Source: a virus
Length of the DNA stretch: 64,000 nt
Virus record (IMG/VR): IMGVR_UViG_3300020045_007008
Span: 1 to 64,000 of that record
Direction: 5' to 3' (one strand)
In this document: one piece after another, positions 39,975 through 57,112 of the stretch
Layout of the letters: every line of letters starts with the position of its first letter
Numbering within the stretch: position 1 is the first letter of the stretch
Made by a program: the position numbers and the translations under genes
The notes under the pieces: model-generated
Told to the model about the DNA's origin: nothing
Seen by the model: the letters and a program-made list of their open reading frames with translations, nothing else
Databases searched by the model: none

Positions 39975-42179
39975 ATGAAATATATAAATGGTTACACATA
40001 TAAGGACAAAATAATTCTCGAATACAAAGAAGATAATATAAAAAAACAAAAAGAAATAATAGATTTTAAATGGTATTTTTATATTAGAAAAGTTGATTTA
40101 TTGAAAATAGATTTAGATAAAATGAAGTCTTGTGGAATGATAGATGATTATATTATTGGAAATGAATATGTCAGATTATATTCTCAAAATTTAAATAATA
40201 ACTACGAACAAGATGCAAAGAAAGCAGTTTTAGAATATTTAAAAAAAGAAAATATAGAAACATTCGAATCTGATTTTGATAGTTTAAAAAGATATTGCAT
40301 TGATAATAGAATAGAAGTAGATGATGATTATGATATATTATATTTTGATATTGAAACTGATGATACAAATATTGGAATAAATATTGGTGCATATCCTATG
40401 TTAACAATGGGAGCAATTGATAATAAAGGTAATAAATTTTATTTTAATGATAAAAATGAGAAAATTCTTTTACATAATTGTTTAGAATTATTTAAAAGAT
40501 ATGATATTATTGCAGGATGGAATAGTTCTGGATTTGATTTACCATATATCAAAGAAAGGATGAAAGAATATAGATTACATTTCAATTGGGGAAGTGTTGC
40601 ACATATTGATATGATGAAACGATTCATATCTCTCTTTAATCTACCTAAAAATTCATTAAATTATGTTGCTGAATATTTTTTAAATGCAAGTAAATTAGAC
40701 CATAGTGGAAAAAGAATTATAGATATATATAATAAAGAACCGGAATTATTGAAAGAATATAATATGCAAGATGTACAATTATTGAAAGATTTAGATGAAA
40801 AGGTCGATTGTTTTAAATTAATGATAAAAGAAGCAAAGTGGTGTAATACTTTTATGAGTAATTTCTATGTTTCAGAATTATTAGATAATTATATTTTAAA
40901 GAATGCGAAAGAAAAGAATATTATATGCCCATCAAAAAAACAACAAGCAGATAATTTTCAATATGCTGGAGCAATAGTATTAGAACCTGACCGAGGATTA
41001 TATGATGATGTATATGTATTTGATTTTAGTAGTCTATATCCTAGTATTATAATGACATCAAATATTGGTTTTGATACATTGGATAAAAATGGACATATAA
41101 AGAACCCAGGCTCAGGATTTAGATTTTCAAATAAAAAGAAATCAATCATAAAAGAAACTATTGAAGGAATGATAGGAAAAAGAAAAGAATATAAAGATAA
41201 AAAATTAAAGATGATTGAAGAAGGAAAAAATAAAGGACCAGAATTTGAAACTATAGTTAGTAATGAATATGTTGTTAAAGCTCTTACTAATTCTATCTAT
41301 GGTATAATGGGAATGCAAACAAGTAGATGGTATTCAGTTGAAATAGCAGAATCAATCACAAAAATGGGGCAATGGATAATTACATTTACATTAAATTATT
41401 TTAATTCAATTGGCTTTAAAGTAATCTATGGTGATACAGATTCACTATTTATCTGTGATAATGAAAATAAAGATATTAAAAATAAAATGGAAGATATTTT
41501 AAAAGAATATCATAGAGTTTTAGAAGATGAACTTAAACAATATGGAATTTTAGAATCACATATTCATTTAGAAGACGACAAAACATTTAGTAGATTTTTA
41601 TTAGTTGATAAAAAAAATTATACTGGTATTGCTTCAAGCATAAACGGTAAAAAAACAAATGAACTATATACCAAAGGACTTGATTATATAAAAAGAAATA
41701 CAATTAAATATGCAAGTAATAAACAAGAAAAATTAATTAAACATATTTTATTTGATAATTATAATATTGATGATTGTATTTGGTTTATCGAAGAATGCCA
41801 AAGAGAAGTGATAGATGGTAAATTAGATATTGAAGATTTAATCATCAGAATGAAAATAACAAAACAACCAAAGGAATATGCGTCAAAATTACCACACGTT
41901 ATTATTGCCGAAAGAATTATAGAAAAGACTGGATATTTACAAAATTATGAAATTGAATATATTGTAAAAAATAGTGATATAAAAGAATATATAATGGTAG
42001 AAGAATATCAAGGCAAATATGATGAATATTTCTATTGGAATAATAGAATTTATAATTTATTAAAAAGAATATGTAATGTTGCATTTCCTGATGAAGATTG
42101 GGAAAGATTTTATATGCAAAAAATAAGAGAAAGAGCAGGTAGAAAGAAAGAACAAAATCAATTATTTTTACAATTTTAA
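39975..42179 (+). CDS. Family B DNA polymerase with 3'-5' exonuclease
   Basis: FDIET, GWNSSGFDLPY, YNMQD, DFSSLYPSII, KALTNSIYG, YGDTDS, KKNY. Confidence 0.95.
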   Translation: MKYINGYTYKDKIILEYKEDNIKKQKEIIDFKWYFYIRKVDLLKIDLDKMKSCGMIDDYIIGNEYVRLYSQNLNNNYEQDAKKAVLEYLKKENIETFESDFDSLKRYCIDNRIEVDDDYDILYFDIETDDTNIGINIGAYPMLTMGAIDNKGNKFYFNDKNEKILLHNCLELFKRYDIIAGWNSSGFDLPYIKERMKEYRLHFNWGSVAHIDMMKRFISLFNLPKNSLNYVAEYFLNASKLDHSGKRIIDIYNKEPELLKEYNMQDVQLLKDLDEKVDCFKLMIKEAKWCNTFMSNFYVSELLDNYILKNAKEKNIICPSKKQQADNFQYAGAIVLEPDRGLYDDVYVFDFSSLYPSIIMTSNIGFDTLDKNGHIKNPGSGFRFSNKKKSIIKETIEGMIGKRKEYKDKKLKMIEEGKNKGPEFETIVSNEYVVKALTNSIYGIMGMQTSRWYSVEIAESITKMGQWIITFTLNYFNSIGFKVIYGDTDSLFICDNENKDIKNKMEDILKEYHRVLEDELKQYGILESHIHLEDDKTFSRFLLVDKKNYTGIASSINGKKTNELYTKGLDYIKRNTIKYASNKQEKLIKHILFDNYNIDDCIWFIEECQREVIDGKLDIEDLIIRMKITKQPKEYASKLPHVIIAERIIEKTGYLQNYEIEYIVKNSDIKEYIMVEEYQGKYDEYFYWNNRIYNLLKRICNVAFPDEDWERFYMQKIRERAGRKKEQNQLFLQF

Positions 42180-42256
42180 AAAATAAAATTGTGGATAACT
42201 TTTCAGTACATTAAAATAATCACTAATATTAAAGTAAATTAAATACATTTTAATAC

Positions 42257-42285
42257 TTGACCAATTCTATATAATATTATATAAT
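42257..42285 (+). promoter_or_regulatory. Sigma70-type promoter with upstream DnaA-like box (42190-98) and ATCACTAATATTAAA (42219-33)
   Basis: TTGACC-17-TATAAT. Confidence 0.8.
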
Positions 42286-42316
42286 TATAATATAAGAGAT
42301 AAGTAATAAAAAATGT

Positions 42317-42622
42317 ATGAAAAAAATAACAAGAGCAACATTAAAAAGTTTTATCAAAAGAGAACACAAGAATAATAATTTATTTGTAAAGACTAAATCA
42401 AGTTTTGATGGTATGGTAGATTGTGTTATGGCTACTTCAGATGATTTTAGAAAAGTAGAAGAAATAAATTTTGATGATAGTCATACATTAGGTCTAAAAG
42501 GATTATGGTTAGTAGGAGAAAGTAGAGATTATATTACAGAATATTCAGATGATAATTATATTGGATATTATATTTCTAATTGCTGTGGTTCGTCAATCGT
42601 AGCAATGAAAAGATTATTTTAA
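42317..42622 (+). CDS. Hypothetical phage protein
   Basis: First ORF after the promoter; SFDGMVDCV...WLVGESRD...NCCG. Confidence 0.65.
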   Translation: MKKITRATLKSFIKREHKNNNLFVKTKSSFDGMVDCVMATSDDFRKVEEINFDDSHTLGLKGLWLVGESRDYITEYSDDNYIGYYISNCCGSSIVAMKRLF

Positions 42623-42633
42623 AATATAAAAAT

Positions 42634-42813
42634 ATGATAACTAAAGAAAAATTTTTATCTTATGAAGCGGTTAGAGAAGATGGAATGACAAATATGTTTG
42701 ATATTAAAAAAGTGATAGAATTATCTGAAATATATTATGGAATAGAATTAACTAGAGAAGATATTACAGAAATAATGAAAAATTATAAAAAATTTAAAGA
42801 ACAATATCTATAA
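42634..42813 (+). CDS. DUF5049-like small protein
   Basis: VREDGMTNMFD motif; ATG at 42634. Confidence 0.6.
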   Translation: MITKEKFLSYEAVREDGMTNMFDIKKVIELSEIYYGIELTREDITEIMKNYKKFKEQYL

Positions 42814-42817
42814 AAAT

Positions 42818-43060
42818 ATGAAATTATATAAATTTATTAGACCCCAGAGTGAGCAAATTATAGAAGAAGTCAGAGCAGAAAATCATATTGAAGCAGTTCA
42901 AAAAGCAATTAGTCCAATGATAAATACCTCTACAGATTTTTATACTGAAGAATTAGATATTAGAGATGATGAATTTTTTAGAGAACTAGCCACAGATGCA
43001 ATGTTAGAAATTGGATTGACAGAAGATGAATCAGAAAGAATGTTAGAAGATTTATTATAA
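42818..43060 (+). CDS. Hypothetical protein
   Basis: ORF in operon. Confidence 0.55.
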   Translation: MKLYKFIRPQSEQIIEEVRAENHIEAVQKAISPMINTSTDFYTEELDIRDDEFFRELATDAMLEIGLTEDESERMLEDLL

Positions 43061-43065
43061 AATAT

Positions 43066-43521
43066 ATGTATCAAAAAGATGTAATACAATTATATAAAGA
43101 ATTAAGTAAAAAATATAATTGTGATTATAGACTTGAATTTAATAATAGAAAAACAGTTTTAGGCTCTTGCAATTATAATAAAAAAGTTATTTCATTATCT
43201 AAACCATATATAGAATCAAATAAAGATGAAGTAATTAAAAATACAATATTACACGAAATAGCTCACGCATTGACAAAAAGTGGGCACGATAAAAAATGGA
43301 AATTAAAATACATAGAAATTGGTGGAAATGGAAATAGAGTAAATTATGAAGCAGTTATAAAATATAAATATATTGCTACCTGTCCTGAATGTGGATATGA
43401 AACTGAATATAATAAAAGACAAAGCGTAGCGTGCCATAAATGTTGTGTGAAATATAATAATGGTAAATTTTCAAATAAATATATTCTAATATTTACTGAA
43501 AATAAAAATATAAAGTTATGA
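43066..43521 (+). CDS. SprT-like zinc metalloprotease
   Basis: LGSC, ILHEIAHA, GHD..WK, CPEC. Confidence 0.85.
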   Translation: MYQKDVIQLYKELSKKYNCDYRLEFNNRKTVLGSCNYNKKVISLSKPYIESNKDEVIKNTILHEIAHALTKSGHDKKWKLKYIEIGGNGNRVNYEAVIKYKYIATCPECGYETEYNKRQSVACHKCCVKYNNGKFSNKYILIFTENKNIKL

Positions 43522-44045
43522 ATTATAATGAAAAAGATATAAGAGAATTTTTAAGTGAATCAAATAAGATAGAACGAGAATATTCAGAACAGGCATTTGA
43601 AGATGCAATTTTAGCTTGGAAATATGCATATAAATATGCGATACCGTTTAAAATTAAGGGACTTCAAAGTACAAAATATATTTTAAAAATACATAGATTA
43701 TTATGTCAGAATATAAGACCAGATATCGCTGGTAAGTATAGAGATTGTGATGTTTGGATAGGTGGAGAAATAAAAAGATTTATAAGCAGAAAATTTTTAG
43801 AAGATGTTACTCAAGGTTGGATTAATACTATAGATATAAATCAAACAAAAAAATTAACAAAAAAGAAAAAAGAAGAAAAAGTAAAAGAATGGCATATTGG
43901 ATTTGAGAAATTGCACCCATTCGAAGATGGTAATGGCAGAACAGGAAGAATATTATACAACATTCATAGATTATTATTAGATTTACCAATACATATAATT
44001 CATACTGGAGATGAACAGTTAAATTATTATCGATGGTTCAAATAA
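43518..44045 (+). CDS. Fic-domain protein (AMPylase family)
   Basis: HPFEDGNGRTGR; ESNKIE. Confidence 0.9.
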   Translation: MNYNEKDIREFLSESNKIEREYSEQAFEDAILAWKYAYKYAIPFKIKGLQSTKYILKIHRLLCQNIRPDIAGKYRDCDVWIGGEIKRFISRKFLEDVTQGWINTIDINQTKKLTKKKKEEKVKEWHIGFEKLHPFEDGNGRTGRILYNIHRLLLDLPIHIIHTGDEQLNYYRWFK

Positions 44046-44570
44046 ATGGATAATAAAGTTTGGATTATAACCGATACACATTTCAATCACAGAAAGATGG
44101 TAGAATATTGTACTAGGCCAGAAAATTTTGATGAGCTTATTTGGAAAAGATTGAAAATAATTAATGAAAATGATTTATTAATTCATTTAGGTGATATTTG
44201 TATTGGTAAAGATAATGAAGTTCACGCGCATCTAAATGGTTTATTAAGATGTAAAAAAATATTAGTCAAAGGAAATCACGATAAGAATAGTAATAATTGG
44301 TATTTAAGAAATGGTTGGGATTTTGTTTGTAATACATTTAGTGATTATTACTTTGGTAAGAATATATTATTTAGTCATATTCCACATAAAGATATTGGTT
44401 ATGATATAAATATACACGGTCATTGTCATACTACACCGAGGACAAAAGATAACAATCCCGATATGAATGATAAACAGATATTATTAGCTATTGAAAATAC
44501 AAATTATCAACCAGTTTTATTGAATACTTTAATAAGTTCATATATTAAAAATTATGAAAATAGAAGATAA
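44046..44570 (+). CDS. Metallophosphoesterase
   Basis: DTHFNH, HLGD, GNHD, SHIP, HGHCH. Confidence 0.88.
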   Translation: MDNKVWIITDTHFNHRKMVEYCTRPENFDELIWKRLKIINENDLLIHLGDICIGKDNEVHAHLNGLLRCKKILVKGNHDKNSNNWYLRNGWDFVCNTFSDYYFGKNILFSHIPHKDIGYDINIHGHCHTTPRTKDNNPDMNDKQILLAIENTNYQPVLLNTLISSYIKNYENRR

Positions 44571-44696
44571 GATAAAAGAAGAATTATTGAAATTGAAAAT
44601 GAATAAAAATAATTTAGGATATCTTGGAGAATTATCAGAAAAGCATAAAGCAATAAATAGAACAATATATAAAGCTATAAAAATTATAGATAAGAT

Positions 44697-45320
44697 ATGT
44701 CAACAATCAAAACTAGAAAAGAAAAAGGAAAAAAATTAGAAAATTGGATTTCAGATAGAATGATGGAAAAGAGATTAGGTATTGCAAGTAAATCTCCTGG
44801 AAGTGGAAGTGGTACAAGAGAAAAGGCAGATATAGTTAATTCAGTTATAATAGTAGAAAGAGAAACAAAAGAAAAAAGAGGATTAGGTATAGAAGCAAAA
44901 AATCACAAAACACCACATATACGAGAATGGTGGGAACAAACATTGAAATTAGAAACAGGAGATTCAAATAGAATTCCAGTACTAGTCTATAAATTAGAGG
45001 GAGAAAAATATTTTGATAGTAAAGCAGTTATAAGATTAGAAACATTTTTAGATTTAGTAAAAGATAATTGTGAGTTATATGGAAATTTAAAACAACTAAC
45101 AGAACAATTAGATAAAAGTGAAGAATGGAAAAGTGAAAGTATGAAAAATAAATTAAATAATTGTTTAAATATGATTGAACTTGGTAGAAATAAATTAATG
45201 AGTAATAGTAAAGTAGAAAAGATAGAAGATTGGAATAATTATAATATGCAGAATGGAAATGAATATCTTAAGAAATCCAAAACAATAATAAAAGACTGTA
45301 TAAATTTAATTGAAAAATAA
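44697..45320 (+). CDS. PD-(D/E)XK nuclease, Holliday-junction-resolvase-like
   Basis: KGKKLE, PGSG, ADI, IEAKN, WWEQ. Confidence 0.7.
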   Translation: MSTIKTRKEKGKKLENWISDRMMEKRLGIASKSPGSGSGTREKADIVNSVIIVERETKEKRGLGIEAKNHKTPHIREWWEQTLKLETGDSNRIPVLVYKLEGEKYFDSKAVIRLETFLDLVKDNCELYGNLKQLTEQLDKSEEWKSESMKNKLNNCLNMIELGRNKLMSNSKVEKIEDWNNYNMQNGNEYLKKSKTIIKDCINLIEK

Positions 45321-45448
45321 TATGAAAATAAATCTAAAGATTAGTTTCTTATTAGCGATGATATTATCTTGGTTTTTCTTTGATTGGAAAATAGCACTGA
45401 TTGTTTCTTTATTTGTAATGGATTTTAAATATACTAATATAAAATAAT

Positions 45449-45841
45449 ATGACAAAGACATTAACAATAAATTTACCACAATCATTTGTTTCTGCTTTAC
45501 ATAGAAGACATCATGGAGTAGAACACACTGAAGAAGAAATACAGAAAAAATTTAAACATATTACAGAATTATATAATGGTTATAAAAAATCGGTAAACAG
45601 TCTTAATAAATTATGGGAATTTTGGAATAGAGAAAATGTTGAGAGTTATTTTAAAAGGCCAAAATGGTATAATGCACATTCGAGAAGAAGGAAATTAGAA
45701 GAAAAAATAAAAAGATATCATGAATATATGTTTAGCACATTGACTTCTTTTGATGGTAATAGTGGCCAATCATTTTCAACTTTTCATTGTATTTCGCCAG
45801 AAGAAATATATGAAGATTTTTTAAAAAAATATATAAAATAA
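45449..45841 (+). CDS. Hypothetical protein
   Basis: ORF in operon. Confidence 0.55.
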   Translation: MTKTLTINLPQSFVSALHRRHHGVEHTEEEIQKKFKHITELYNGYKKSVNSLNKLWEFWNRENVESYFKRPKWYNAHSRRRKLEEKIKRYHEYMFSTLTSFDGNSGQSFSTFHCISPEEIYEDFLKKYIK

Positions 45842-45842
45842 T

Positions 45843-46136: not shown

Positions 46137-46140
46137 AAAT

Positions 46141-47430
46141 ATGTTAAGTATCTCAAAAACAGCCAATTCAAATTATCTTGCTAAAATAGTAAAAATAAAG
46201 AATTTAAGAAAACATAATAATGCAGATAGACTACAAATAACAAGTATTGATTTTCAAGATGTTATTGTTGGATTAGATGCAAAAGAAGGAGATATCTATT
46301 GTTTTTTTCCATTAGAGTGCCAAATAAATAAGAATTTTTTGTCATTTACCAATTCATTTAGGCATAGTGAATTAAATCAAGATAAAGAAAAAGTTGGATT
46401 TTTTGAAGATAATTGTAGAGTACGAGCAGTAAAATTAAGAGGAGAAAAGTCAATGGGATATATAGTTCCAATTGAAGAATTAGAAAAATTCATTGGAAAA
46501 GATTTAAAAGATTATATTGATGAAGAATTTGATACTGTTGATAATATTTTATTATTACAAAAATACATAATAAAGACTAGAGAATCTAATATCACCAATG
46601 GTAAAGGAAGGAAGCTAAAAATATCAAGACTAGTAGAAGGACAAGTTAGATTGCATGTTGATACTGAAAATTTAAGAAAGAATGCTTTTAAAATCAATCC
46701 AGAAGATGAAATTACTATTACATATAAAGTTCATGGGACATCTTGGTGGGTAAGTAATTTATTAGTAAAGAAAAAATTAAATTTATTTTATAAGTTTTTA
46801 AAACTAATTGGAATTAAAATTATAGATAAAGAATATGATTATATCTACGGTTCAAGAAAAGTCGTAAAAAATGAATATGAAACATCAGGAAAACAACATT
46901 TTTATGATACTGATATTTGGGGAGAAATAAAGGAAGAAATAAAAGAATTTATTCCAAAAGGATATACTATTTACGGTGAATGTTTAGGATATACAAAAAG
47001 TGGAAGTGAAATTCAAAGTAAATATGACTATGGTTGTAATGTAGGAGAAAAAAGAATTCAGATATATAGAATTACCTTTACTAATGAAGATGGAGTAGTT
47101 AATGATTTATCTTCAAAACAAATAAAAGAATTTTGCGATAGATTTGGATTAGAATATGTACATATATTTTATATGGGATTAGCAGGAAACTTATATCCAG
47201 AATTAAACTTAAATGAACATTGGCAAGAAGAATTCATTAGAAGATTGGAGAAAGATTACAATGACAAAAATTGTTTTATGTGTAAAAATGAAGTACCAGA
47301 AGAAGGAATAGTATTGAGAAAAGAAACACTATTTTATTTTGAAGCATATAAATTGAAGTCTTGGAAATTTCTTGAGTGGGAATCGAAGGAATTAGATAAA
47401 GGAGAAGTCGATATAGAAAGTAATAATTAA
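46141..47430 (+). CDS. RNA ligase (Rnl2 / DRB0094-like) with N-terminal OB-fold
   Basis: HNNADRL...KLRGEKSMG N-domain; motif I KVHGTS, YGE, EGIV, YKLKS. Confidence 0.85.
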   Translation: MLSISKTANSNYLAKIVKIKNLRKHNNADRLQITSIDFQDVIVGLDAKEGDIYCFFPLECQINKNFLSFTNSFRHSELNQDKEKVGFFEDNCRVRAVKLRGEKSMGYIVPIEELEKFIGKDLKDYIDEEFDTVDNILLLQKYIIKTRESNITNGKGRKLKISRLVEGQVRLHVDTENLRKNAFKINPEDEITITYKVHGTSWWVSNLLVKKKLNLFYKFLKLIGIKIIDKEYDYIYGSRKVVKNEYETSGKQHFYDTDIWGEIKEEIKEFIPKGYTIYGECLGYTKSGSEIQSKYDYGCNVGEKRIQIYRITFTNEDGVVNDLSSKQIKEFCDRFGLEYVHIFYMGLAGNLYPELNLNEHWQEEFIRRLEKDYNDKNCFMCKNEVPEEGIVLRKETLFYFEAYKLKSWKFLEWESKELDKGEVDIESNN

Positions 47431-47448
47431 TAATTTAAAATTAATATT

Positions 47449-47790
47449 ATGAATATAAAAAATGGAGATGTGTGCTTTTCACTTGATGGAGAACATTTTA
47501 ATGATGATTGGGAAAGAATAGAAGAATTAAAGAGTGGAGAAAAATATTATAAAGCAATTACTAGAGAAATTAGATTAGAAGATTTAATTGATGTAGATAG
47601 TATATTGGAATATATGCAAGAAAGAGCGGGTGAAGAATGTGGTGATGCGTCAGAAGATTATCTTATGGATTTGTTTGGAAATCAAAAACATAAAGATGAG
47701 CTATTAGATTTAATATGTAATTGGTTTAAATTAAAAGAATATCAACCAAATTTCTATGCTGTGGATGATATTGAGGAATTAATTAAATAA
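47449..47790 (+). CDS. Hypothetical acidic protein
   Basis: ORF in operon. Confidence 0.55.
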   Translation: MNIKNGDVCFSLDGEHFNDDWERIEELKSGEKYYKAITREIRLEDLIDVDSILEYMQERAGEECGDASEDYLMDLFGNQKHKDELLDLICNWFKLKEYQPNFYAVDDIEELIK

Positions 47791-47792
47791 AT

Positions 47793-48020
47793 ATGATTTA
47801 TTTTTTCACATCAAAAAAAGATACAAATTGTAAATTAATGAAACCGATAATAGATAGACTACAAAGAAAATACATTATTGAAATCATAGATATAGATGAA
47901 CATAGAGAACTGGTTAAGAATTTTGAGATAAAAGAATTACCAACATTAGTAAAACGAAATGGTAGATTATTCGGTATAGCATCAAAACAAAAGATAGTAG
48001 AATTTTTAAATAGTAATTAA
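47793..48020 (+). CDS. Thioredoxin-like protein (degenerate CxxC)
   Basis: DTNCKLMKP, IDIDE, LPTLV; first Cys is missing. Confidence 0.6.
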   Translation: MIYFFTSKKDTNCKLMKPIIDRLQRKYIIEIIDIDEHRELVKNFEIKELPTLVKRNGRLFGIASKQKIVEFLNSN

Positions 48021-48106
48021 AAATATGAATTTATTAAAATGTATTATTGTAGGAATTATTCTTGATGTCTTAATGATATTATGGATTATTCATTTAGCAA
48101 ATTAAT

Positions 48107-48307
48107 ATGAAAAAATTAATAGTATTTATTGTATTATTTTATCAGTTCGCCTCTGGTTATTGGATATTTGGGTTTTCTATCCCGCGAGTGACATCTATCG
48201 CTATAGACAGCAATGGTCAATGTGTAAAATGGGAAGGAGAACAAAGACAATGTACTATTGACGAAATATATATGATGAATAATCTTTACAAATTATATGA
48301 AGAATAA
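48107..48307 (+). CDS. Small membrane/secreted protein
   Basis: MKK followed by a hydrophobic N-terminus. Confidence 0.45.
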   Translation: MKKLIVFIVLFYQFASGYWIFGFSIPRVTSIAIDSNGQCVKWEGEQRQCTIDEIYMMNNLYKLYEE

Positions 48308-49145
48308 AATATTAGTACTAAAAGGACTCCCAGCTTCAGGTAAAACGACATTTGCAAAAAAGTTGATTAATGAAGAAAAGAATTGGAAAAGAATAAATAA
48401 AGACGATTTAAGAGCAATGATTGATAATAATATTTGGAGTAAAGACAATGAAAAACTTATCTTAAAAATAAGAGATAATATTATTATTGATTGTTTAGTA
48501 AATAAATATAATATTATTATTGATGATACTAATTTTGCAGAAAAACACATTAATCGAATAAATGAAATTGCAGATAGACTTGACGTTGAAGTAGAAGAAA
48601 AGTTTTTCGATATTCCAGTAAATGAATGTATTAAAAGAGATTCGGAAAGACCCAATCCAGTAGGAAAAAAAGTCATAATGAATATGTATAATACCTATTT
48701 AAAAAAAGAAATACCACCAGTAAAATGGATAAGTAAAAGAAGAACTGCTATAATATGTGATATAGATGGTACATTGGCAAAAATGAAAAATAGAGGACCA
48801 TTTGATTGGATGAAAGTAGAGAATGATGAATTAAATAAACCAGTTGCTGATATATTAGAAAAATATCAAGATAGTGTAGATACAATTCTTTTAAGTGGTA
48901 GAGATGGAATATGTAGAGAACAAACAGAACAATGGTTAGCTGATAATAATATAAAATATACTTGTCTTTTTATGAGAGATATTGATAATAATGAAAAAGA
49001 TAGTATAATAAAAGAGAGAATATATAGAGAAAAAATAGAATCATTATATAATATTTTATTTATTCTCGATGATAGGACTCAAGTAGTAGAGATGTGGCGT
49101 AATTTAGGATTAACTTGTTTTCAAGTAGCAAATGGCGATTTCTAA
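48297..49145 (+). CDS. pseT: Polynucleotide 5'-kinase / 3'-phosphatase (T4 PseT-like)
   Basis: GLPASGKTT, DDLR, DDTN; HAD domain CDIDGTLA, SGR, DDRTQVV. Confidence 0.93.
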   Translation: MKNKILVLKGLPASGKTTFAKKLINEEKNWKRINKDDLRAMIDNNIWSKDNEKLILKIRDNIIIDCLVNKYNIIIDDTNFAEKHINRINEIADRLDVEVEEKFFDIPVNECIKRDSERPNPVGKKVIMNMYNTYLKKEIPPVKWISKRRTAIICDIDGTLAKMKNRGPFDWMKVENDELNKPVADILEKYQDSVDTILLSGRDGICREQTEQWLADNNIKYTCLFMRDIDNNEKDSIIKERIYREKIESLYNILFILDDRTQVVEMWRNLGLTCFQVANGDF

Positions 49146-49146
49146 C

Positions 49147-49218
49147 GCCCAGGTGGCCAAATTGGCTAGGCGATAGACTGCAAATCTATTAATGGAGGTT
49201 CGAGTCCTCTCCTGGGCT
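49147..49218 (+). tRNA. tRNA-Cys(GCA), CCA not encoded
   Basis: Acceptor GCCCAGG/CCTGGGC; anticodon arm ATAGA-CTGCAAA-TCTAT; GGTTCGAGTCC. Confidence 0.93.
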
Positions 49219-49386
49219 CAATATAATTAATAATATAAAAATATGCTTGTTCAATGTGAAGTTTGTAATAAATCATTTGATGCTAAAGATGATAGTATTC
49301 CAGTATGTGATGAATGTTTAGAGCTTAATTCAAGGGAGTATTGGGAGCAAGCACTATTTGATGAGTTTGATTATTAAATTTAACAT

Positions 49387-49665
49387 ATGAAAAAAATATT
49401 AATTATATTGACGATACTAGTAATATTATATTTACTATTAATACCAGTTAATGCGGACGAACCAAAACAAATGAATATTACTATTTCTGAATATCCAGAA
49501 AAGACATTAACAATATCACAGAGTTTTGAAATGACAGCTAATGTACCAAAAAGTGACTATTATAAATGTTTAGATGTTTGTTTCTGTGATGATAGCCCAG
49601 ATATGGATGAAAAACAATGTAGGGATATTTGTAAAATTTATTGTTATAATACTTATGTTAAATAA
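49387..49665 (+). CDS. Secreted/membrane Cys-rich protein
   Basis: Signal-like N-terminus; C-terminal Cys cluster. Confidence 0.55.
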   Translation: MKKILIILTILVILYLLLIPVNADEPKQMNITISEYPEKTLTISQSFEMTANVPKSDYYKCLDVCFCDDSPDMDEKQCRDICKIYCYNTYVK

Positions 49666-49829
49666 TATGGCATTAACAGCCGAACAAAGATTAAGGGCAA
49701 TAAGTAAAATAATTGAATCTGATATGGGATTTGAGGCTGATACATATTCATTAAGAAAAAATAAAGACAAAGATGCTCAATTATTTGCTGATATGATAAT
49801 GGAAGTATATATGATAGTTCATCCACATT

Positions 49830-50618
49830 TTGGATGTAAACACAATGATTGGGATGATAATACATATAAATTATCTGAAGAATATGAATAACAACAAGAT
49901 AGGTAAAATGAAAAAACAATTTATAGATATAATACCAGATGAATTAAATATCTGTCTATTGGGATTGCAAGGAAGTAGAGCATTAGGTATGGCTATGAAT
50001 GAAGATGCTGATTATGATTATCGAGGTATATTTATAGAAGATAATAAAAAATTATTATCCCTAAGAAAGACAAAAGAAACTATTGATTTTGGTAGTTCAA
50101 AAGATGGTGAAGCAGAATTTGTTTTTCATGAAATTGGAAAGTTCTTCAAATTAGCAATAGCTGGAAATCCAAATTTGATTAATTTATTATTTTTACCAGA
50201 ATATAATTATTCAGATAATTATGGTAGAATGATAATTGCAAATAAAGAGTTATTTTTAAGTGAGAAGGCAATACGAAATTCATTTGGTGGATATGCATTT
50301 GGTCAGATGATGTATTTAAAAAGAAATCATAAATTTACTAAGAATAAATCTATAGAAAGCAAAATAAAAAAACACATTAGACATTGCTTTTCTCTATTTG
50401 ATATGGGAATAGAACTATTAGAAACAGCAAAAATAACATTTCCATTAGAGAATGCTAAAAAATATATTGAGATTGCAGAATGGAATGATGAAGATAGGTG
50501 GATGAAATTATTTGAGGAAACAAATGATAGATTTAACGATTGTAAATGTATATTACCAAAAGAACCAAATATTTTATTATTAGAACATTTATTATTAAAA
50601 ATTAGAGGGTTAGTGTAA
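49830..50618 (+). CDS. RlaP-like (Pol beta superfamily) nucleotidyltransferase
   Basis: GSRALG...DADYDYRGIF, GNPN; true start probably 49863 or 49908. Confidence 0.8.
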   Translation: MDVNTMIGMIIHINYLKNMNNNKIGKMKKQFIDIIPDELNICLLGLQGSRALGMAMNEDADYDYRGIFIEDNKKLLSLRKTKETIDFGSSKDGEAEFVFHEIGKFFKLAIAGNPNLINLLFLPEYNYSDNYGRMIIANKELFLSEKAIRNSFGGYAFGQMMYLKRNHKFTKNKSIESKIKKHIRHCFSLFDMGIELLETAKITFPLENAKKYIEIAEWNDEDRWMKLFEETNDRFNDCKCILPKEPNILLLEHLLLKIRGLV

Positions 50619-50674
50619 TGGTAACACGATGGTCTCCAAAACCATAATTTAGAGTTCGAATCTCTAGCCTTCTG
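50604..50674 (+). tRNA. tRNA-Trp(CCA), overlapping the upstream CDS; CCA not encoded
   Basis: Acceptor AGAGGGT/GCCTTCT; ATGGT-CTCCAAA-ACCAT; TAGAG-TTCGAAT-CTCTA. Confidence 0.88.
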
Positions 50675-51243: not shown

Positions 51244-51591
51244 ATGGATATACAAAAATTTATAGAAAAAAGAAAAGAAGATGGACAGAATAGTTTTAGA
51301 GATAAATGTCTTGTCATTGGTGTAGATATGGATGGAGTATTATGTAGTGGAGAATTATGGGAAGGAGAAAATAGTGAACCAAAACCAATACAAGAAAATA
51401 TAGATAAAATAAATGAATTAAGTAAAACTAATTTTATAGTAATTCATACAGCAAGAAGAAAAGAATCGGCAACAAAAACAATAAATTGGCTCAATAAATA
51501 TCAAGTGGTATATCATGCAATTAGATTTGATAAAATGCCAGCTGATTTATATATAGATGATAAAGCATTTAACTTTGATATCTATGAATAA
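51244..51591 (+). CDS. HAD-family phosphatase
   Basis: DMDGVL, HTAR, K..ADLYIDDKA. Confidence 0.8.
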   Translation: MDIQKFIEKRKEDGQNSFRDKCLVIGVDMDGVLCSGELWEGENSEPKPIQENIDKINELSKTNFIVIHTARRKESATKTINWLNKYQVVYHAIRFDKMPADLYIDDKAFNFDIYE

Positions 51592-51752
51592 AAATTTAGA
51601 AATAGTACAATCAAAATCAAAAGAAATTGGACATTGCGTTTGTTCAAAATGTTTTACTTGCCCCTGTAATTATTTTACTCAATATAATTTATGTAAATGT
51701 GCAGGGGATAAAATAAATCAAGAAGAGTGGCTAAAATTTAATTTAAATAAAA

Positions 51753-52145
51753 ATGAATACATTTGAATTAGGTAAGAAAGGCGAACAAATTATTTATCAG
51801 TTATTTAAAAATAAAAAATATCAAATTCAATCACCAGACTTTTTTGTATACAGCAAAGAAATAGATAAATATATATGTATTGAAGTTAAATTTAAAAATA
51901 ATCAATTTAAATCTCAATATTTTAATGGTTATGGAATAAATAAAAATCAAATATATTTAAGAAATAAACTATTTGAAAAAACAAATATAAGAACATTCAT
52001 AATAATAGTTGATAATACGATAAAAAATATTTATGGTCAATATTTAGATATATTACAGAAAGGAAAATTTATAAATACAAAAGATACTACAATATATGAT
52101 TTAAATAGCTATTTATTAATAAAAAAAGGTATTGACTTTTTTTAA
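51753..52145 (+). CDS. PD-(D/E)XK nuclease-like protein
   Basis: GKKGE, PDF, IEVK. Confidence 0.6.
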   Translation: MNTFELGKKGEQIIYQLFKNKKYQIQSPDFFVYSKEIDKYICIEVKFKNNQFKSQYFNGYGINKNQIYLRNKLFEKTNIRTFIIIVDNTIKNIYGQYLDILQKGKFINTKDTTIYDLNSYLLIKKGIDFF

Positions 52146-52160
52146 ATAATACTATATAAT
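52132..52160 (+). promoter_or_regulatory. Sigma70-type promoter of the deazaguanine operon
   Basis: TTGACT-17-TATAAT. Confidence 0.8.
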
Positions 52161-52186
52161 AATATTATAATTAAAAGAATAAAAAT

Positions 52187-52594
52187 ATGCACATATTGAG
52201 ATTAAAACACCATTTCGATGCGGCTCATCGATTAGAATTTCATAGTGGATTATGCTCGAACCTCCATGGCCACCGCTGGGATGTAGAAGTATTAATACGA
52301 AAAAATGAATTAGATAAAAATAAATTAGTAGTTGATTTCGGAGATATTAAAAAAATAATTAATGAGTTCGACCATAAGACTATTTTAAAAAATTGTGAAG
52401 AAAATCAAAAATTAATAGATGTTATTTTCGAGATGGGATGTGCTTATATTTTATTAGGTGATTCACCTACTGCAGAAAATATTGCACAAGTATTAACAAA
52501 TAGAATTAATGAAGAATTACAAATATCAAATACAGAAGTTATTGTTTGGGAATCACCAGAAGCATCAATTGAATATTATAATAATGAAATATAA
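52187..52594 (+). CDS. queD: 6-carboxytetrahydropterin synthase
   Basis: FDAAHRL, C.NLHGH, DFG, FDH, PTAENIA, VWES. Confidence 0.93.
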   Translation: MHILRLKHHFDAAHRLEFHSGLCSNLHGHRWDVEVLIRKNELDKNKLVVDFGDIKKIINEFDHKTILKNCEENQKLIDVIFEMGCAYILLGDSPTAENIAQVLTNRINEELQISNTEVIVWESPEASIEYYNNEI

Positions 52595-52598
52595 AAAT

Positions 52599-53249
52599 AT
52601 GATAAAAGTAAATATCAATGAAGCATTTCATTCTATTCAAGGAGAAGGTGCAACAATAGGGCATCCAATATTGTTTATTAGATTAGCAGGATGTAATTTA
52701 CATTGTTTGTTCTGTGATACTCAATACCATACTAATATTAATTATAATGAGATAAATGATGAGTTAGATAAATTATTAAGAAAACATAAATCATGGTGCA
52801 TTACTGGTGGTGAGCCATTATTACAGCAAGATAAAATCCTAGAACTTATTAGAGAATATGACCCAGAATGGGTAGAAATAGAAACTAATGGTACAATAAA
52901 ACCATCTGATGAATTATTAGAAATTATTAGTCAATGGAATATAAGTCCTAAAAATCCAGAACAAAACGAAGTGAAAAATATTGAATATAAATTTTTAGAT
53001 AGTTTAGCATATAATATTAATTATATAATTAAATTTGTATATACAGATAAACAAGATGAAAATTTTATTGAGACAATGATAGATAATTATTATATAGATG
53101 AAAATAGAGTATTTATAATGACAGAAGGTGCAACAAAAAAAGAGCAAGAGCACAATATGCCAAATGTAATAGAGTATTGTTTAAAAAATGAATTTAATTT
53201 TAGTCCCAGGCTACATGTGTTGCTCTGGAACAATAGACAAGGAGTATGA
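52599..53249 (+). CDS. queE: 7-carboxy-7-deazaguanine synthase (radical SAM)
   Basis: F.SIQGEG, RLAGCNLHCLFCDT, ITGGEPLLQ, IETNGT, SPK, PRLH. Confidence 0.93.
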   Translation: MIKVNINEAFHSIQGEGATIGHPILFIRLAGCNLHCLFCDTQYHTNINYNEINDELDKLLRKHKSWCITGGEPLLQQDKILELIREYDPEWVEIETNGTIKPSDELLEIISQWNISPKNPEQNEVKNIEYKFLDSLAYNINYIIKFVYTDKQDENFIETMIDNYYIDENRVFIMTEGATKKEQEHNMPNVIEYCLKNEFNFSPRLHVLLWNNRQGV

Positions 53250-53728
53250 TTGTAACATATAAACAAATAATAAAAGACTCAATTGAGTTAGCAAATCACA
53301 TTAAAAACAATTATGTTAATAGAGCAAAAGAGTATAAAGCAATCCATGGTATCCCAGCTGGCGGAATAGCAACTGCAGTTGTAATGGCTCATGTATTGAA
53401 TATTGATAATATTCTAAGTGCTGAAGATTATAAAAATTATGAAAATAAATCAGAAGTATTAGTAGTAGATGATTTAGTAGACAGTGGTGCAACATTAAAA
53501 AAGTTTTCAGAATCAGATTGTGCTGTAGTATATAAAAAACCACATTCACCTCAACCAACATATTACTATAAAGATATTGAAAGTGGTTGGGTAGAATTTC
53601 CACACGAAAAGGACAAAGCAGGTATTCTTGACCATATTATAAGAGTATTCTCTTATATTGATGTTCAATTATCAGATGAGGAACAGCAATTAGTTATACA
53701 ATTACTTAATAAAATAAAGAATAAATAA
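53246..53728 (+). CDS. Type I purine phosphoribosyltransferase (Gpt-like)
   Basis: GIPAGG, VLVVDDLVDSGATL PRPP loop, WVEFPHE. Confidence 0.85.
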   Translation: MIVTYKQIIKDSIELANHIKNNYVNRAKEYKAIHGIPAGGIATAVVMAHVLNIDNILSAEDYKNYENKSEVLVVDDLVDSGATLKKFSESDCAVVYKKPHSPQPTYYYKDIESGWVEFPHEKDKAGILDHIIRVFSYIDVQLSDEEQQLVIQLLNKIKNK

Positions 53729-53787
53729 TTAATATAGAGTTATAAAATTAGACTTATCTTTTTACTACTTTTCCTCTATTCAAAAAA

Positions 53788-54534
53788 ATGAAAAAAAAGA
53801 TTGTTATTATTTCTGGAGGAATGGATTCAACTACACTGCTATATGATGTAGTGAATCAATTCTCATCAGAAAATGTGATTGCTTTAACATTTTTCTATGG
53901 TTCAAAACATAATGACCAAGAAATAAAGAGAGCAAAAATTAGTTGTCAAAAATTAAATGTTGAGCATAAATTATTTGATTTATCGTCAATATTTCAAAAT
54001 TTTAACTCATCATTATTAAAAAAAGAAGACAGTGAAATAATACCAGAGGGGCATTATGCAGAAGACAATATGAAAAAAACGGTTGTCCCATATCGAAATG
54101 GTATATTATTATCTATTGCAATTGGATTTGCTGAAGATTTAGATTGTGATTCAGTATATTATGGTGCTCACGCTGGTGACCATACTATTTATCCAGATTG
54201 TCGAGATGAGTTTGTGAAAGCATTTTCATTAGCATCAATATTAGGTACATATAATAGAGTGAAAGTAATTGCAAGTTATGAAAATATTGATAAATATGGA
54301 ATTCTACAGATAGGAAAAAAATTAAATATTAATTATATTGATACTTGGACGTGTTATAATGGAGAAGAAGCACCTTGCGGAAAATGTGGAAGTTGTACAG
54401 AAAGAGCTGAAGCATTCTATAAAATGAATATGAAAGACCCATTATATACAGATAAACAATGGCAAGATGTATTATTAAATCTTAAAAAATTAAACATAAT
54501 TGATAATACCAATTATCAACCTGAATTATTATGA
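53788..54534 (+). CDS. queC: 7-cyano-7-deazaguanine synthase
   Basis: SGGMDS, VPYRN, YPDCR, TWTCY, CGKCGSC.ER. Confidence 0.95.
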   Translation: MKKKIVIISGGMDSTTLLYDVVNQFSSENVIALTFFYGSKHNDQEIKRAKISCQKLNVEHKLFDLSSIFQNFNSSLLKKEDSEIIPEGHYAEDNMKKTVVPYRNGILLSIAIGFAEDLDCDSVYYGAHAGDHTIYPDCRDEFVKAFSLASILGTYNRVKVIASYENIDKYGILQIGKKLNINYIDTWTCYNGEEAPCGKCGSCTERAEAFYKMNMKDPLYTDKQWQDVLLNLKKLNIIDNTNYQPELL

Positions 54535-55118
54535 GAAATAAAGAAAAATTAGAACAAATTTCAAAATCTCTAATAGAAGAAATCGGAGAAAAATCAGACA
54601 GACAAGGATTAATTGGTACACCAGATAGAATGGCAAGAATGTTTTTAGAAGTTTTTAGAGGATATGATGAAACACAAAAACCCAAAATAACAACATTTAA
54701 AAATGGAACTGATGGAATAGTATATGACCAAATTATTACTGATACGGGTTCATATTATTCATATTGTGAACATCATATGGTACCATTCTTCGGTCAATAT
54801 TGGTTTGCATATATTCCACACCCAGACGGAAAAATTTTAGGATTAAGTAAAGTTGCAAGAATCGTTGATTATTATTCGGCTAAAATGCAAATACAGGAAA
54901 GATTAGTTCAAGATATCGTGAATAATCTATGGAGTGCTTTAATAGATAGTAATAGAATTGAACCTATAGGAATGGCTTTGGTAATGAAAGGTGAACATTT
55001 ATGTAAATCAATGCGTGGTGTGAAAAAAAGAGGAACAATGACGACATCTGATTTGAGGGGTTGTTTTAAAACTGAAGCTGATACAAGAAAAGAATTTTTT
55101 GACTTGATAAAATTATGA
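54531..55118 (+). CDS. folE: GTP cyclohydrolase I
   Basis: GL..TP.R, CEHHMVPF, GLSKVAR, QIQERL, HLCKSMRGV. Confidence 0.95.
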   Translation: MRNKEKLEQISKSLIEEIGEKSDRQGLIGTPDRMARMFLEVFRGYDETQKPKITTFKNGTDGIVYDQIITDTGSYYSYCEHHMVPFFGQYWFAYIPHPDGKILGLSKVARIVDYYSAKMQIQERLVQDIVNNLWSALIDSNRIEPIGMALVMKGEHLCKSMRGVKKRGTMTTSDLRGCFKTEADTRKEFFDLIKL

Positions 55119-55609
55119 AAGAAAAATTAGAGAAATTATTACAACAAATAAAAGAAAGAAAAGGTGGTGCTGATTCATCAAAATCACATTTAAAGAGTGC
55201 ATTATATGATTGGAGAATTGAAGATAACTGGTCTAGAAATAATTGCTTTGTAATAAGTGAAAATGATTTGGGATTTGCATTTTATACATTCACGATACGA
55301 GAGCCTAGACACTGCACATTAAGACATATATTCACATTAGAAGAAGCAAGAGGTCAAGGAATTGGAAAGAAACTAATGAATAGAATTGAAGAGCATATGA
55401 AGAGAGATAGAGTTGAGATAATGCGATTTTATGCAAATAAGCCAGCTATTAAATTCTATGAAAAATTAGGATATACTTGGCTCGGTGAAAATAAACAAGG
55501 ATTGCCATTCACATATTGTGATATATGTACAAAGAAGAATATTAATAATCAACAACAATTGAAAAAAATATTCAAAATTTATAATCAAAATAATTTATTT
55601 AATATCTAA
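55115..55609 (+). CDS. GNAT-family acyltransferase inside the deazaguanine operon
   Basis: IFTLEEARGQGIGKKLM (acetyl-CoA motif A), N.PAIKFYEKLGY (motif B). Confidence 0.85.
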   Translation: MKEKLEKLLQQIKERKGGADSSKSHLKSALYDWRIEDNWSRNNCFVISENDLGFAFYTFTIREPRHCTLRHIFTLEEARGQGIGKKLMNRIEEHMKRDRVEIMRFYANKPAIKFYEKLGYTWLGENKQGLPFTYCDICTKKNINNQQQLKKIFKIYNQNNLFNI

Positions 55610-55614
55610 ATTTT

Positions 55615-56094
55615 ATGTCAGATACAAAAAGTTTAAAATCATTAGGTTCTAAATCAACAAAATATGAATGTAATGGTGTCAATCCAGAATTATTGGAAGT
55701 ATTTGAAAATCAACACCAAAAAAATAATTATTTAATACCATTTATTCAACCAAGAGATGAATTTACTTCATTATGTCCTAAGACTGGGCAACCCGACCAC
55801 GCCGCTTTAGAAATTATATATATACCGAGAGAAGATTGTGTAGAATCAAAATCATTAAAGCTTTATTTAGTATCTTTTCGAAATAGCGGAGAATTTCACG
55901 AAGATGTCTGTAATAGAATAGCAGATGATTTAATTAGATTATTAAATCCTAAATATCTCAGAGTATATGGTGATTTTGCACCAAGAGGCAGTTTAGCAAT
56001 AAAACCACTTATTGAACGATGGAATATAGAAGAAGGTATAGAAAAACAAGATATAAAATTTTTAATTAATTCTTGGGATTTAAAGAAAAAATAA
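55615..56094 (+). CDS. queF: NADPH-dependent preQ0 reductase (unimodular)
   Basis: EFTSLCPKTGQPD, QueF motif ESKSLKLY, FHE, F.PRG. Confidence 0.93.
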   Translation: MSDTKSLKSLGSKSTKYECNGVNPELLEVFENQHQKNNYLIPFIQPRDEFTSLCPKTGQPDHAALEIIYIPREDCVESKSLKLYLVSFRNSGEFHEDVCNRIADDLIRLLNPKYLRVYGDFAPRGSLAIKPLIERWNIEEGIEKQDIKFLINSWDLKKK

Positions 56095-56095
56095 A

Positions 56096-57112
56096 ATGAA
56101 TAGTTTAAAAGATTTTAATTTATTTTATGCAGTTAGTGGACGAATGTTCTTAGAATATCTTCTTATCTGTAATGTTAAAAATATTCTTATTTCTTTTGCT
56201 TATTTAGACCCGTGGTCAATGAGTAATATAATGAAGCACAATAATATAAATTTAATTTGTGATTCTGGTGCATTTACTGCTTGGAATTTAAGTCAAAAAT
56301 ATAAAAAGAAGGGCGACCCGAATTGGCAAAAATATTTAGTTGATATTGATGCATATGTTGAATTTCTGAATAAACATAAAGATATAATTTATAGAGCAGT
56401 AAATATTGATGTCATCCCAGGTGAACAAGGTATAGAACCAACAGAGGAGCAAATAATTGAAGCGGCAGAGCAAGGGTGGAAAAATTATCAATATTTAAAA
56501 AGCAAAGGATTTGATACAATTCACGTATTTCATCAAGGTGAGCCAGATTGGGTTCTAGATAGAATGTTGAAAGAATGTGATTATATTGGAATAAGTCCAA
56601 GTAATGACTATAGCACAAAGAGAAAAAGATTGTGGATGGATAGAATTTTTAAATATATTGCTGATTCTAATAACCCAAAAATAAAAACTCACGGATTTGC
56701 TGTAACAAGTGAAGAATTAATGAATAATTATCCTTGGTTTTCAGTTGACTCAAGTAGCTGGTGTCTAAGTGCCGCGATGGGAAAAGTAAGAACAAAATAT
56801 GGTGAGTTATATGTAAGTGATAGGGGAAAATATGGAGATGATAATATTTTTTCAAAAACAGGTGAAGTGAGAAAAGAATTAGATAAATACTTCATAGAAA
56901 AAATTGGATATAATATATCAGCATTAGCAGGTGAACCAGAAAAAATAATTAAGAAATGTGAATGTGGAATCGAAAATGAAATCGAGATACCGTGCAGTCA
57001 ATATAAGACAAGAACATTAGCGAATATATTATATAATTTAGAATTTGAAGAAAAGAGACGAGCAAGCGGACCGAATTTGAATTTTATGAATCAAAATAAA
57101 TTATTTGAATAA
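56096..57112 (+). CDS. dpdA: DpdA-like DNA-guanine transglycosylase (TGT fold)
   Basis: DSGAFT, NIDVIPG, VFHQGE, YIGIS, HGF, SVDSSSW; last gene of the que operon. Confidence 0.8.
   Translation: MNSLKDFNLFYAVSGRMFLEYLLICNVKNILISFAYLDPWSMSNIMKHNNINLICDSGAFTAWNLSQKYKKKGDPNWQKYLVDIDAYVEFLNKHKDIIYRAVNIDVIPGEQGIEPTEEQIIEAAEQGWKNYQYLKSKGFDTIHVFHQGEPDWVLDRMLKECDYIGISPSNDYSTKRKRLWMDRIFKYIADSNNPKIKTHGFAVTSEELMNNYPWFSVDSSSWCLSAAMGKVRTKYGELYVSDRGKYGDDNIFSKTGEVRKELDKYFIEKIGYNISALAGEPEKIIKKCECGIENEIEIPCSQYKTRTLANILYNLEFEEKRRASGPNLNFMNQNKLFE

Follow-up and report, generated by a model that had tools for sequence, protein, structure and literature searches.

C-terminal tails of the β-clamp-binding type on phage PolB and DpdA may tie DNA modification to replication

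The IMG/VR virus record IMGVR_UViG_3300020045_007008 is an 81,449-base phage genome (single contig, 27% G+C), and its first 64 kb (positions 1 to 64,000) form the window analyzed here. The window encodes a bacterial-type β sliding clamp (DnaN), a family B DNA polymerase (PolB), and a deazaguanine modification operon in which the genes for preQ0/preQ1 synthesis (QueD, QueE, QueC, FolE, and QueF) lie directly upstream of, and on the same strand as, the gene of a DpdA-type DNA guanine transglycosylase. PolB, DpdA, QueC, and a GNAT acetyltransferase from the same operon all end in a peptide of the form Q-x-x-L-[FL], on tails predicted to be flexible in DpdA and GNAT, and comparison of the sequences supports the assignment of these tails to the β-clamp-binding type. 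Judging from sequence conservation and structural models, we consider it likely that PolB and DpdA hook onto the clamp by their tails and that modification is thereby tied to replication, and the phage probably modifies its DNA as that DNA is copied. We infer that the clamp is the partner of the tails and that docking on it makes modification co-replicative.

Results

Translation confirmed the tails that a preliminary description of this DNA had reported: QNQLF on PolB, QNNLF on GNAT, QNKLF on DpdA, and QPELL on QueC (Table 1). These peptides, with QLFLQF as a second possible register in PolB, have the glutamine at position 1, the aliphatic residue at position 4, and the phenylalanine or leucine at position 5 that define a clamp-binding motif (CBM). 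The CBM consensus, QL[SD]LF, tolerates changes at position 2, as in the QHDLF and QPDLF motifs of MuC from phage Mu, where an L-to-A substitution abolishes clamp binding (PMC12867686), and it is described in a review as accepting much variability (PMC9690074).

The background was measured in a greedy set of 147 open reading frames (ORFs) of at least 40 aa covering the whole 81,449-base genome. The pattern Q..LF occurs 7 times, and the three occurrences that begin within the last 9 residues are those of PolB, GNAT, and DpdA. This count of 3 in 147 ORFs compares with 0.12 expected from 20,000 within-protein shuffles (P(≥3) = 0.00025) and with 0.17 from a sliding-window estimate; the chance of meeting Q..LF at one given C terminus is about 0.0012. 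QN.LF is present three times in the proteome, every time at a C terminus. The looser pattern Q..[LIM][FL] adds QueC (4 of 147 ORFs versus 0.73 expected, P = 0.006), and PolB, QueC, GNAT, and DpdA are also the four ORFs that pass a stricter definition of "terminal". The placement of the tails is non-random in this genome; since the pattern was defined after the tails had been seen, the P values are indicative only, which detracts from the case. A DNA repeat shared by the genes was considered as the source of the tails and rejected: the flanks differ, and a search with a 24-nt pattern retrieved only the dpdA copy. The near-identical tail codons of GNAT and DpdA (AAT CAA AAT AA. TTA TTT) are due to strongly biased codon use and not to a repeat.

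DpdA provides the strongest case for a conserved terminal motif. By tblastn the protein matches 191 phage records, where the annotation reads queuine tRNA-ribosyltransferase or 7-deazaguanosine inserting enzyme, and it matches PHROG 887 (2.3e-54) and no Pfam family. Its AF2 model (predicted local distance difference test, pLDDT, 91.7) has tRNA-guanine transglycosylases as top Foldseek matches (E down to 7e-6, TM about 0.5-0.6). Homologues were scored for a C-terminal Q..[LIM][FLI] or Q..[LIM].[FLI]. Of the 41 proteins that come nearest in the databases (46-58% identity; alignment A1), 39 satisfy this rule, and the two misses are a KQLIFNI variant and a truncated 305-aa fragment. Q333 and an aromatic residue, F/Y330, are invariant (41/41 each) and L336 is kept in 38/41, in an alignment with 49 invariant columns overall; 34 of the 41 sequences stop right after the motif. 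As controls under the same rule, 80 DnaN homologues and 56 GNAT homologues gave no hit, and 78 DpdAs at greater distance gave 2. Hence the motif is conserved in DpdA homologues, with an invariant glutamine. In the model, the tail follows the last long helix (302-324), and the final block has a mean pLDDT of 71. Two phages that can be cultured carry it as well: DpdA of Streptococcus phage Dp-1, which grows on S. pneumoniae R6 and whose DNA contains dPreQ1 at about 1.7% of G (PMC6884629), ends in QRRLF, and that of Bacillus phage Flasso, which grows on B. cereus, in QGKLF. A scan of genome contigs returned only distant DpdAs (≤44% identity over partial matches) and no member of the motif clade. 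Other DpdA clades (P0043-P0120, loci L010-L047) keep endings of their own, such as W..RG[IV].W, WPWAFK...GF.L, KQL[STL]FF, KSQQSLF, and ..S[LM]F, which suggests that the DpdA family holds several distinct docking tails.

A second DNA-acting enzyme with such a tail is found in a sister phage. Contig G002 is syntenic with the genome studied here over about 34-67 kb, from the primase-helicase gene to past the terminase gene, and its DnaN is 67% identical to that of our phage. G002 lacks the entire deazaguanine operon. Between its dnaN and polB it encodes a fusion of SNF2 with an N6_N4 DNA methylase (L002:1809-3998) that ends in ...KKQQTLF. Thus, both related phages would hook their DNA-acting enzyme to the clamp, despite their different modification modules. 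From the large family of this SNF2-methylase, 80 IMG/VR loci (L068-L147) were retrieved, 78 of them with complete 3′ ends; 37 of the 78 have the terminal motif, many in a near-consensus form (QLSLF, QISLF, QITLF, QLSLI), and other members carry Q.TLFDF followed by an extension. As judged from its sequence, the tail of the G002 methylase lends independent support to a link between modification and the clamp.

For PolB, which has both polymerase and 3′-5′ exonuclease domains (Pfam DNA_pol_B, 205.1 bits; DNA_pol_B_exo1, 44.2; RNase_H_2, 46.4), comparison with relatives makes a good case for a clamp tail. The PolB of the sister phage (82% identical) ends in ENQLFLNF, that is, with E in place of the first Q and with Q-L-F-L-x-F retained. 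The pentapeptide register QNQLF is doubtful for this reason, and the terminal hexapeptide QLFLQF appears the more likely register. The nearest PolB cluster representative (50% identity) ends in NQTSLF, and of the 30 representatives closest to this protein 10 have a terminal Q..[LIM][FLI], as have 17 of 150 overall, so that this type of tail recurs in relatives and its conservation is partial. Other PolB proteins of the group (P0259-P0408) show further recurrent tails, ...[ST]L.[DE][FY][LVA] and G[KR].[ND]LW, which may be hooks for other types of clamp.

The phage does encode its own clamp, as the preliminary description had stated: all three β-clamp domains are recognized in DnaN by Pfam, DNA_pol3_beta (PF00712) with 76.6 bits, DNA_pol3_beta_2 (PF02767) with 46.5 bits, and DNA_pol3_beta_3 (PF02768) with 46.0 bits (cut-offs 27, 24.4, and 27 bits, respectively). 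By phmmer, residues 7-352 align with solved β clamps (53 distinct sequences at E ≤ 1e-5, best E 2.3e-26). This alignment includes the C-terminal ...MPM segment and the SDG.RLA segment, which would line the client-binding cleft. Named cellular relatives of this DnaN are few; they come from metagenome-assembled genomes of the Patescibacteria group (28-30% identity) and hint at a host from the candidate phyla radiation, without being evidence of one.

The clamp that the tails would meet need not be that of the phage. No DnaN was found in the three IMG/VR phages of the DpdA motif clade, G001 (70% complete), G003 (59%), and G004 (86%), and no β clamp in the complete genomes of Dp-1 and Flasso, though their DpdAs bear the motif; in G001, DpdA is the sole ORF of 75 with a terminal motif. 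Since motif-bearing DpdAs occur where no clamp was found, the motif is not tuned solely to a phage clamp, and the DpdA tail, if it is a clamp hook, must work with host β clamps too. We therefore abandoned the suggestion that "QN" is a variant specific to this phage and fitted to its clamp. The DpdA clade varies at position 2 (Q, G, K, N, L, E, and others in alignment A1), the tails of the sister phage read QQTLF and ENQLFLNF alongside the 67%-identical DnaN, and Asn makes up 7.3% of the residues in this proteome.

Clamp-like genes repeatedly neighbor dpdA in other phages. The gene order in L014 is DpdA, a DnaN-like ORF (18 bits, below the cut-off of 27), and PolA, and in L020/L048 a DpdA with the ending QPSFF has a DnaN-like ORF (26 bits in the whole-protein scan, just below the same cut-off, and 28.2 in another scan) about 1.1 kb downstream. 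Pfam supports the clamp identity of these two ORFs weakly. In CAjan (KP064094.1, 25683-29768, locus L188), dpdA is embedded in a replication module, being followed by a small hypothetical gene, a gene for a 317-aa processivity factor (PHROG 947, E 5e-82, with a weak β-clamp central-domain signal), and PolB.

We modeled the proposed interaction by co-folding two copies of DnaN with DpdA residues 300-338, each supplied as an alignment. The score was 0.59 (0.60, 0.58, and 0.59 in individual runs), compared with 0.00 for the best of three unrelated-partner controls; the runs agreed in at least 54% of contacts, and the partner pLDDT was at least 39. Of 80 solved complexes, 58 attain the mark that this score passes, as do 2 of 110 mismatched pairs; passes at 0.60 or under comprise 7 of the 80 solved complexes and both of the passing mismatches, and the verdict is "weak support". 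Since clamp-peptide complexes have already been solved (PDB), the pass may reflect likeness only. The co-fold of a tail with the phage DnaN, which the preliminary description had called for with each peptide, was run for the DpdA tail and speaks for binding to this limited extent.

Several observations weigh against the tails being clamp hooks. At positions 2 and 3 the motifs (N-N, N-K, P-E) depart from QL[SD]LF, with no hydrophobic residue at position 2. The co-fold passed only weakly, and no contacts are given for it. The characterized DpdA of CAjan ends in ...VMELF, which lacks the Q, and a majority of the distant DpdAs end in W..RG[IV].W, so that clamp docking is not general to DpdA; the CAjan PolB ends in MGYA, and no Q-type tail is common to the two CAjan proteins. 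A clamp-loader family is absent from the Pfam and PHROG hits of 18 window proteins, among which no dedicated search for a loader was made. It could be, then, that only PolB has a true CBM, that the tails of GNAT and QueC are unrelated or neutral, and that the DpdA tail binds something else, such as another hub in the replisome or in recombination, a second subunit of the enzyme, or its own enzyme in an intramolecular regulatory contact. The non-consensus positions and the weak co-fold would suit such a partner, as would the invariant F/Y330, which lies three residues before the Q and outside the classical CBM, and the pLDDT of the tail, which is moderate and not very low. On the other hand, Q-x-x-L-[FL]-COOH is the exact layout of terminal CBMs, a like tail is present on PolB and on the SNF2-methylase adjoining dnaN, the unrelated partners in the co-fold scored nothing, and clamp-like genes recur beside dpdA. 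We consider a different DpdA partner unlikely and a clamp hook on DpdA the better account of its tail.

The tails of GNAT and QueC are lineage-specific extensions and not conserved features. The GNAT tail is missing from all 56 homologues (43-59% identity) and from all of 18 IMG/VR loci, the nearest relative ending just before it, and a search of 5.8 billion proteins returned no GNAT homologue above 59% identity. QueC from the related loci L001, L008, and L009 is shorter at the C terminus and has no such tail (0/3). Conservation in homologues, borne out by DpdA, therefore failed for these two proteins, and the GNAT motif is backed by the statistics and by analogy, which again counts against a hook common to all four. 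A looser "hydrophobic-F" ending was tried and discarded as too loose; it is present in 7 of the 56 GNAT homologues, all without Q, versus 0 of the 80 DnaN controls.

Chance might then have produced the tails of GNAT and QueC, and likewise the common "QN", in an AT-rich proteome rich in Asn, Lys, Leu, Phe, and Ile (Asn as above, Leu 8.0%, Phe 4.7%), with selection acting on DpdA and PolB alone. Their absence from relatives fits this explanation, and so does the expectation of 0.73 looser patterns per proteome. The per-terminus probability for Q..LF, by contrast, is small, and GNAT is not a random protein, since its gene lies two genes upstream of dpdA in the same operon. Moreover, both motifs lie on residues beyond the ends of the relatives, and the GNAT tail is predicted to be disordered (residues 160-164 below 50 in an AF2 model with a pLDDT of 93.1). 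An origin by chance is in our judgment quite improbable, and short clamp-binding-type extensions may be the better description of these two tails.

The GNAT tail had also been put forward as independent support for an action of this enzyme on DNA. The tail is real; with no counterpart in 56 homologues and a like tail on QueC, it gives this idea weak support. Possession of a hook is not enough to mark an enzyme as DNA-acting, because QueC, which acts on the free base, also ends in QPELL; to our knowledge QueC has no reason to be on DNA, which is a further difficulty for the replisome model. Clamp docking, if real, would bring a protein close to DNA but would be no proof that it acts on DNA. GNAT may acylate DNA-borne preQ1, and it could equally well act on preQ1 as the free base. 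Foldseek gave 91 PDB matches at E ≤ 0.001, and those listed are all generic GNATs. In 4 of the 18 IMG/VR loci (L051, L052, L053, and L064), GNAT homologues (52-59% identity) are encoded directly upstream of QueF-QueC-QueD-QueE-FolE, and tblastn with the DpdA of this window found no DpdA in the flanks. The neighborhood GNAT-QueF-QueC-QueE-FolE thus connects the family with preQ1 and makes no such connection with DNA. Upstream of the GNAT homologue lies the gene of a 392-aa protein without a Pfam hit. In a related phage, L009:8538-9989 encodes a 483-aa QueF with an intein-like insert, in which Pfam Intein_splicing and helix-turn-helix matches precede the QueF domain.

Discussion

Our results are consistent with a model in which the C-terminal Qxx[L][F/L] peptides are β-clamp-binding motifs carried on flexible tails. 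On PolB, the motif would be a processivity tether to the phage DnaN, as with the family B polymerase Pol II of E. coli, which requires its C-terminal CBM (PMC4770218). DpdA would exchange guanine in duplex DNA for preQ0 or preQ1, and its CBM would dock it on the sliding clamp, either the phage DnaN or host β in this phage and host β in those relatives in which a clamp gene was looked for and not found. DpdA would thus be enriched on fresh DNA, where clamps have been loaded and stay behind, and guanines would thereby be replaced ahead of host nuclease action. GNAT, and perhaps QueC, would have gained like tails as short extensions in this lineage, and these may bring later pathway steps to the same ring, the β dimer offering two clefts, as in a "tool-belt" model. 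The proposal of the preliminary description that modification is tethered to the replisome is thus supported in part. The clamp-type tails, their conservation on DpdA, and the methylase of G002 speak for it; the lack of conservation on GNAT and QueC speaks against it.

The carriers resemble known CBM clients such as Pol II and MuC in having Q...L-F at a flexible end, in the presence of a bacterial-type DnaN, and in the location of the PolB motif at the very end of the protein. They differ in that a base-exchange enzyme, a GNAT, and QueC are among them, in the polar residues at positions 2-3, and in that clamp binding is predicted here. Recruitment of a DNA-modifying enzyme by a replication clamp has precedents. 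The α-glucosyltransferase of phage T4 contacts the gp45 clamp, and a coupling of modification to replication through this contact was proposed (PMC13216743). Like our DpdA, for which the pairing is deduced from sequence, it is a phage DNA-modifying enzyme combined with the phage's own clamp; unlike here, the T4 clamp is trimeric gp45 and not dimeric β, and the reaction is glucosylation of 5-hydroxymethylcytosine and not base exchange. The T4 precedent also tells against a large role for docking: the contact was confirmed, yet it turned out not to be what chiefly determines the modification share (PMC13216743), and docking need not matter much quantitatively for this reason. In maintenance methylation, a short peptide of DNMT1, the PIP box, binds the clamp PCNA and so brings the enzyme to newly replicated DNA (PMC9690074); PCNA and the PIP box are eukaryotic, and the analogy is one of logic, not homology.

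The modification genes themselves are those of described phage deazaguanine systems (CAjan, 9g, Dp-1, Rosebush; DpdA1-4), with the set FolE-QueD-QueE-QueC-QueF-DpdA. In these systems, modification is described as post-replicative, with DpdA as the inserting transglycosylase (PMC6884629, PMC10516641). Our phage differs from them in having a GNAT inside the operon ("acetyl" is found 0 times in these papers), and the best-studied DpdA, that of CAjan, lacks a Q-type tail. "Clamp" and "replisome" are absent from the main texts of the same two papers. Full-text literature searches, in which few subscription journals were covered, returned no report linking DpdA or phage DNA methylases with a β-clamp motif; a paper on cluster O mycobacteriophages names a β clamp and methylases and draws no link between them (PMC4351075). 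For a GNAT fold acting on DNA there is a precedent in Mom of phage Mu, an iron-dependent, acetyl-CoA-binding protein with DNA as its substrate that methylcarbamoylates adenine (PMC7261163). The likeness to our GNAT is one of fold, the top Foldseek hits of the latter being ordinary GNATs.

The tails might also bind the clamp to hijack it or compete for it, by displacing host clients, by recruiting enzymes to intermediates of repair or recombination, or by coupling to late transcription as in Mu and T4. The CBMs of MuC serve transcription and interfere with regulatory inactivation of DnaA (RIDA) in the host (PMC12867686), and the T4 α-glucosyltransferase contact, which does not set the modification share (PMC13216743), would be in line with such a role. 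The carriers found here, however, include enzymes that act on duplex DNA, DpdA and a DNA methylase, for which tethering to a DNA-bound ring has an evident catalytic pay-off, and there is no regulator-like carrier among the 4 hits in 147 ORFs; we regard hijacking as very improbable. Non-polar C termini can act as protease signals, and a hydrophobic C-terminal peptide could limit enzyme levels as a degradation or turnover tag; this is hardly credible, given that the invariant Q and the aromatic residue, which stand five and eight residues from the end, suit a docking motif better and that a like tail is found on a replicative polymerase.

If the tails of PolB and DpdA are clamp hooks, they bear on the question of how a base-exchange enzyme finds and covers the genome fast enough to beat restriction, with levels of modification that vary widely among DpdA families. 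A conserved clamp hook on DpdA offers a concrete mechanism, recruitment to clamps on nascent DNA, in phages such as Dp-1 and Flasso that are amenable to experiment. The hook on about half of the SNF2-methylase family suggests that replication-coupled marking may be common in phages of β-clamp bacteria. The terminal motif would be a cheap sequence signature for predicting which phage proteins of unknown function act at the fork, and it would widen the known list of clients of the β clamp, a drug target. A more general version, in which clamp docking is a widespread organizing principle of phage DNA (hyper)modification with terminal CBMs on whole enzyme families, we put forward tentatively and regard as rather doubtful. 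The families would be the large DpdA clade that includes Dp-1 and Flasso and the SNF2-methylases, with GNAT and QueC as pathway enzymes. A "modification tool-belt" would then ride the clamp behind the fork, converting nascent DNA before host nucleases act on it, and the presence and type of the hook would help to explain the range of modification in DpdA families, from under 0.1% to 100% of guanines.

Genomic context

The modification operon has the order QueD, QueE, a phosphoribosyltransferase (PRTase)-like gene, QueC, FolE, GNAT, QueF, and DpdA. The coordinates of these genes, of the replication genes, and of the tails are collected in Table 1.

Table 1. Genes and C-terminal tails discussed in the text, with positions in the window
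Feature	Position	Strand	Description
RecE-like exonuclease candidate	36182-37120	+	312 aa; internal QLELF (residues 35-39) at 36284..36298
dnaN	38907..39971	+	354-aa bacterial-type β sliding clamp, directly upstream of polB; three Pfam clamp domains
Family B DNA polymerase (PolB)	39975..42179	+	734 aa; C-terminal clamp-binding-type tail ...KKEQNQLFLQF
PolB tail	42153..42176	+	QNQLF 42153-42167, or terminal hexapeptide QLFLQF 42159-42176
QueD (PTPS)	52187-52594	+	preQ0 pathway; Pfam PTPS 101.8 bits
QueE (radical SAM)	52509-53249	+	preQ0 pathway; Pfam Radical_SAM and Fer4_12 match
QueC	53788..54534	+	248 aa; Pfam QueC 196.5 bits over residues 4-213; ends ...NYQPELL
QueC tail	54517-54531	+	QPELL, on ~12 additional C-terminal residues
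FolE, GTP cyclohydrolase I	54531..55118	+	Pfam 170.5 bits
GNAT acetyltransferase	55115..55609	+	164 aa, between folE and queF; Pfam Acetyltransf_1 58.5 bits; ends ...YNQNNLFNI
GNAT tail QNNLF-NI	55586-55606	+	QNNLF itself at 55586-55600
QueF, preQ0 to preQ1 reductase	55615..56094	+	Pfam QueF 103 bits
DpdA-type DNA guanine transglycosylase	56096..57112	+	338 aa; ends ...FMNQNKLFE; predicted from homology and fold
DpdA tail	57083..57109	+	F-x-x-Q-x-x-L-[LFI], here FMNQNKLFE; QNKLF at 57092-57106

The internal QLELF of the RecE-like exonuclease candidate, a protein with a weak match to PHROG 434 (E 4.9e-4), reads QLEIF in the sister phage and is a possible fifth clamp motif, perhaps N-terminal. 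Immediately 5′ of dnaN lies the gene of a 413-aa SMC/RecF-like ATPase (37655-38896; Pfam AAA_23, AAA_29, and AAA_15) that also matches PHROG 1499, of unknown function, and is kept in the sister phage. Between the replication and modification modules, an RNA-repair-like cassette (46141-50618) encodes an RNA ligase, a polynucleotide kinase-phosphatase, and an RlaP-family nucleotidyltransferase.

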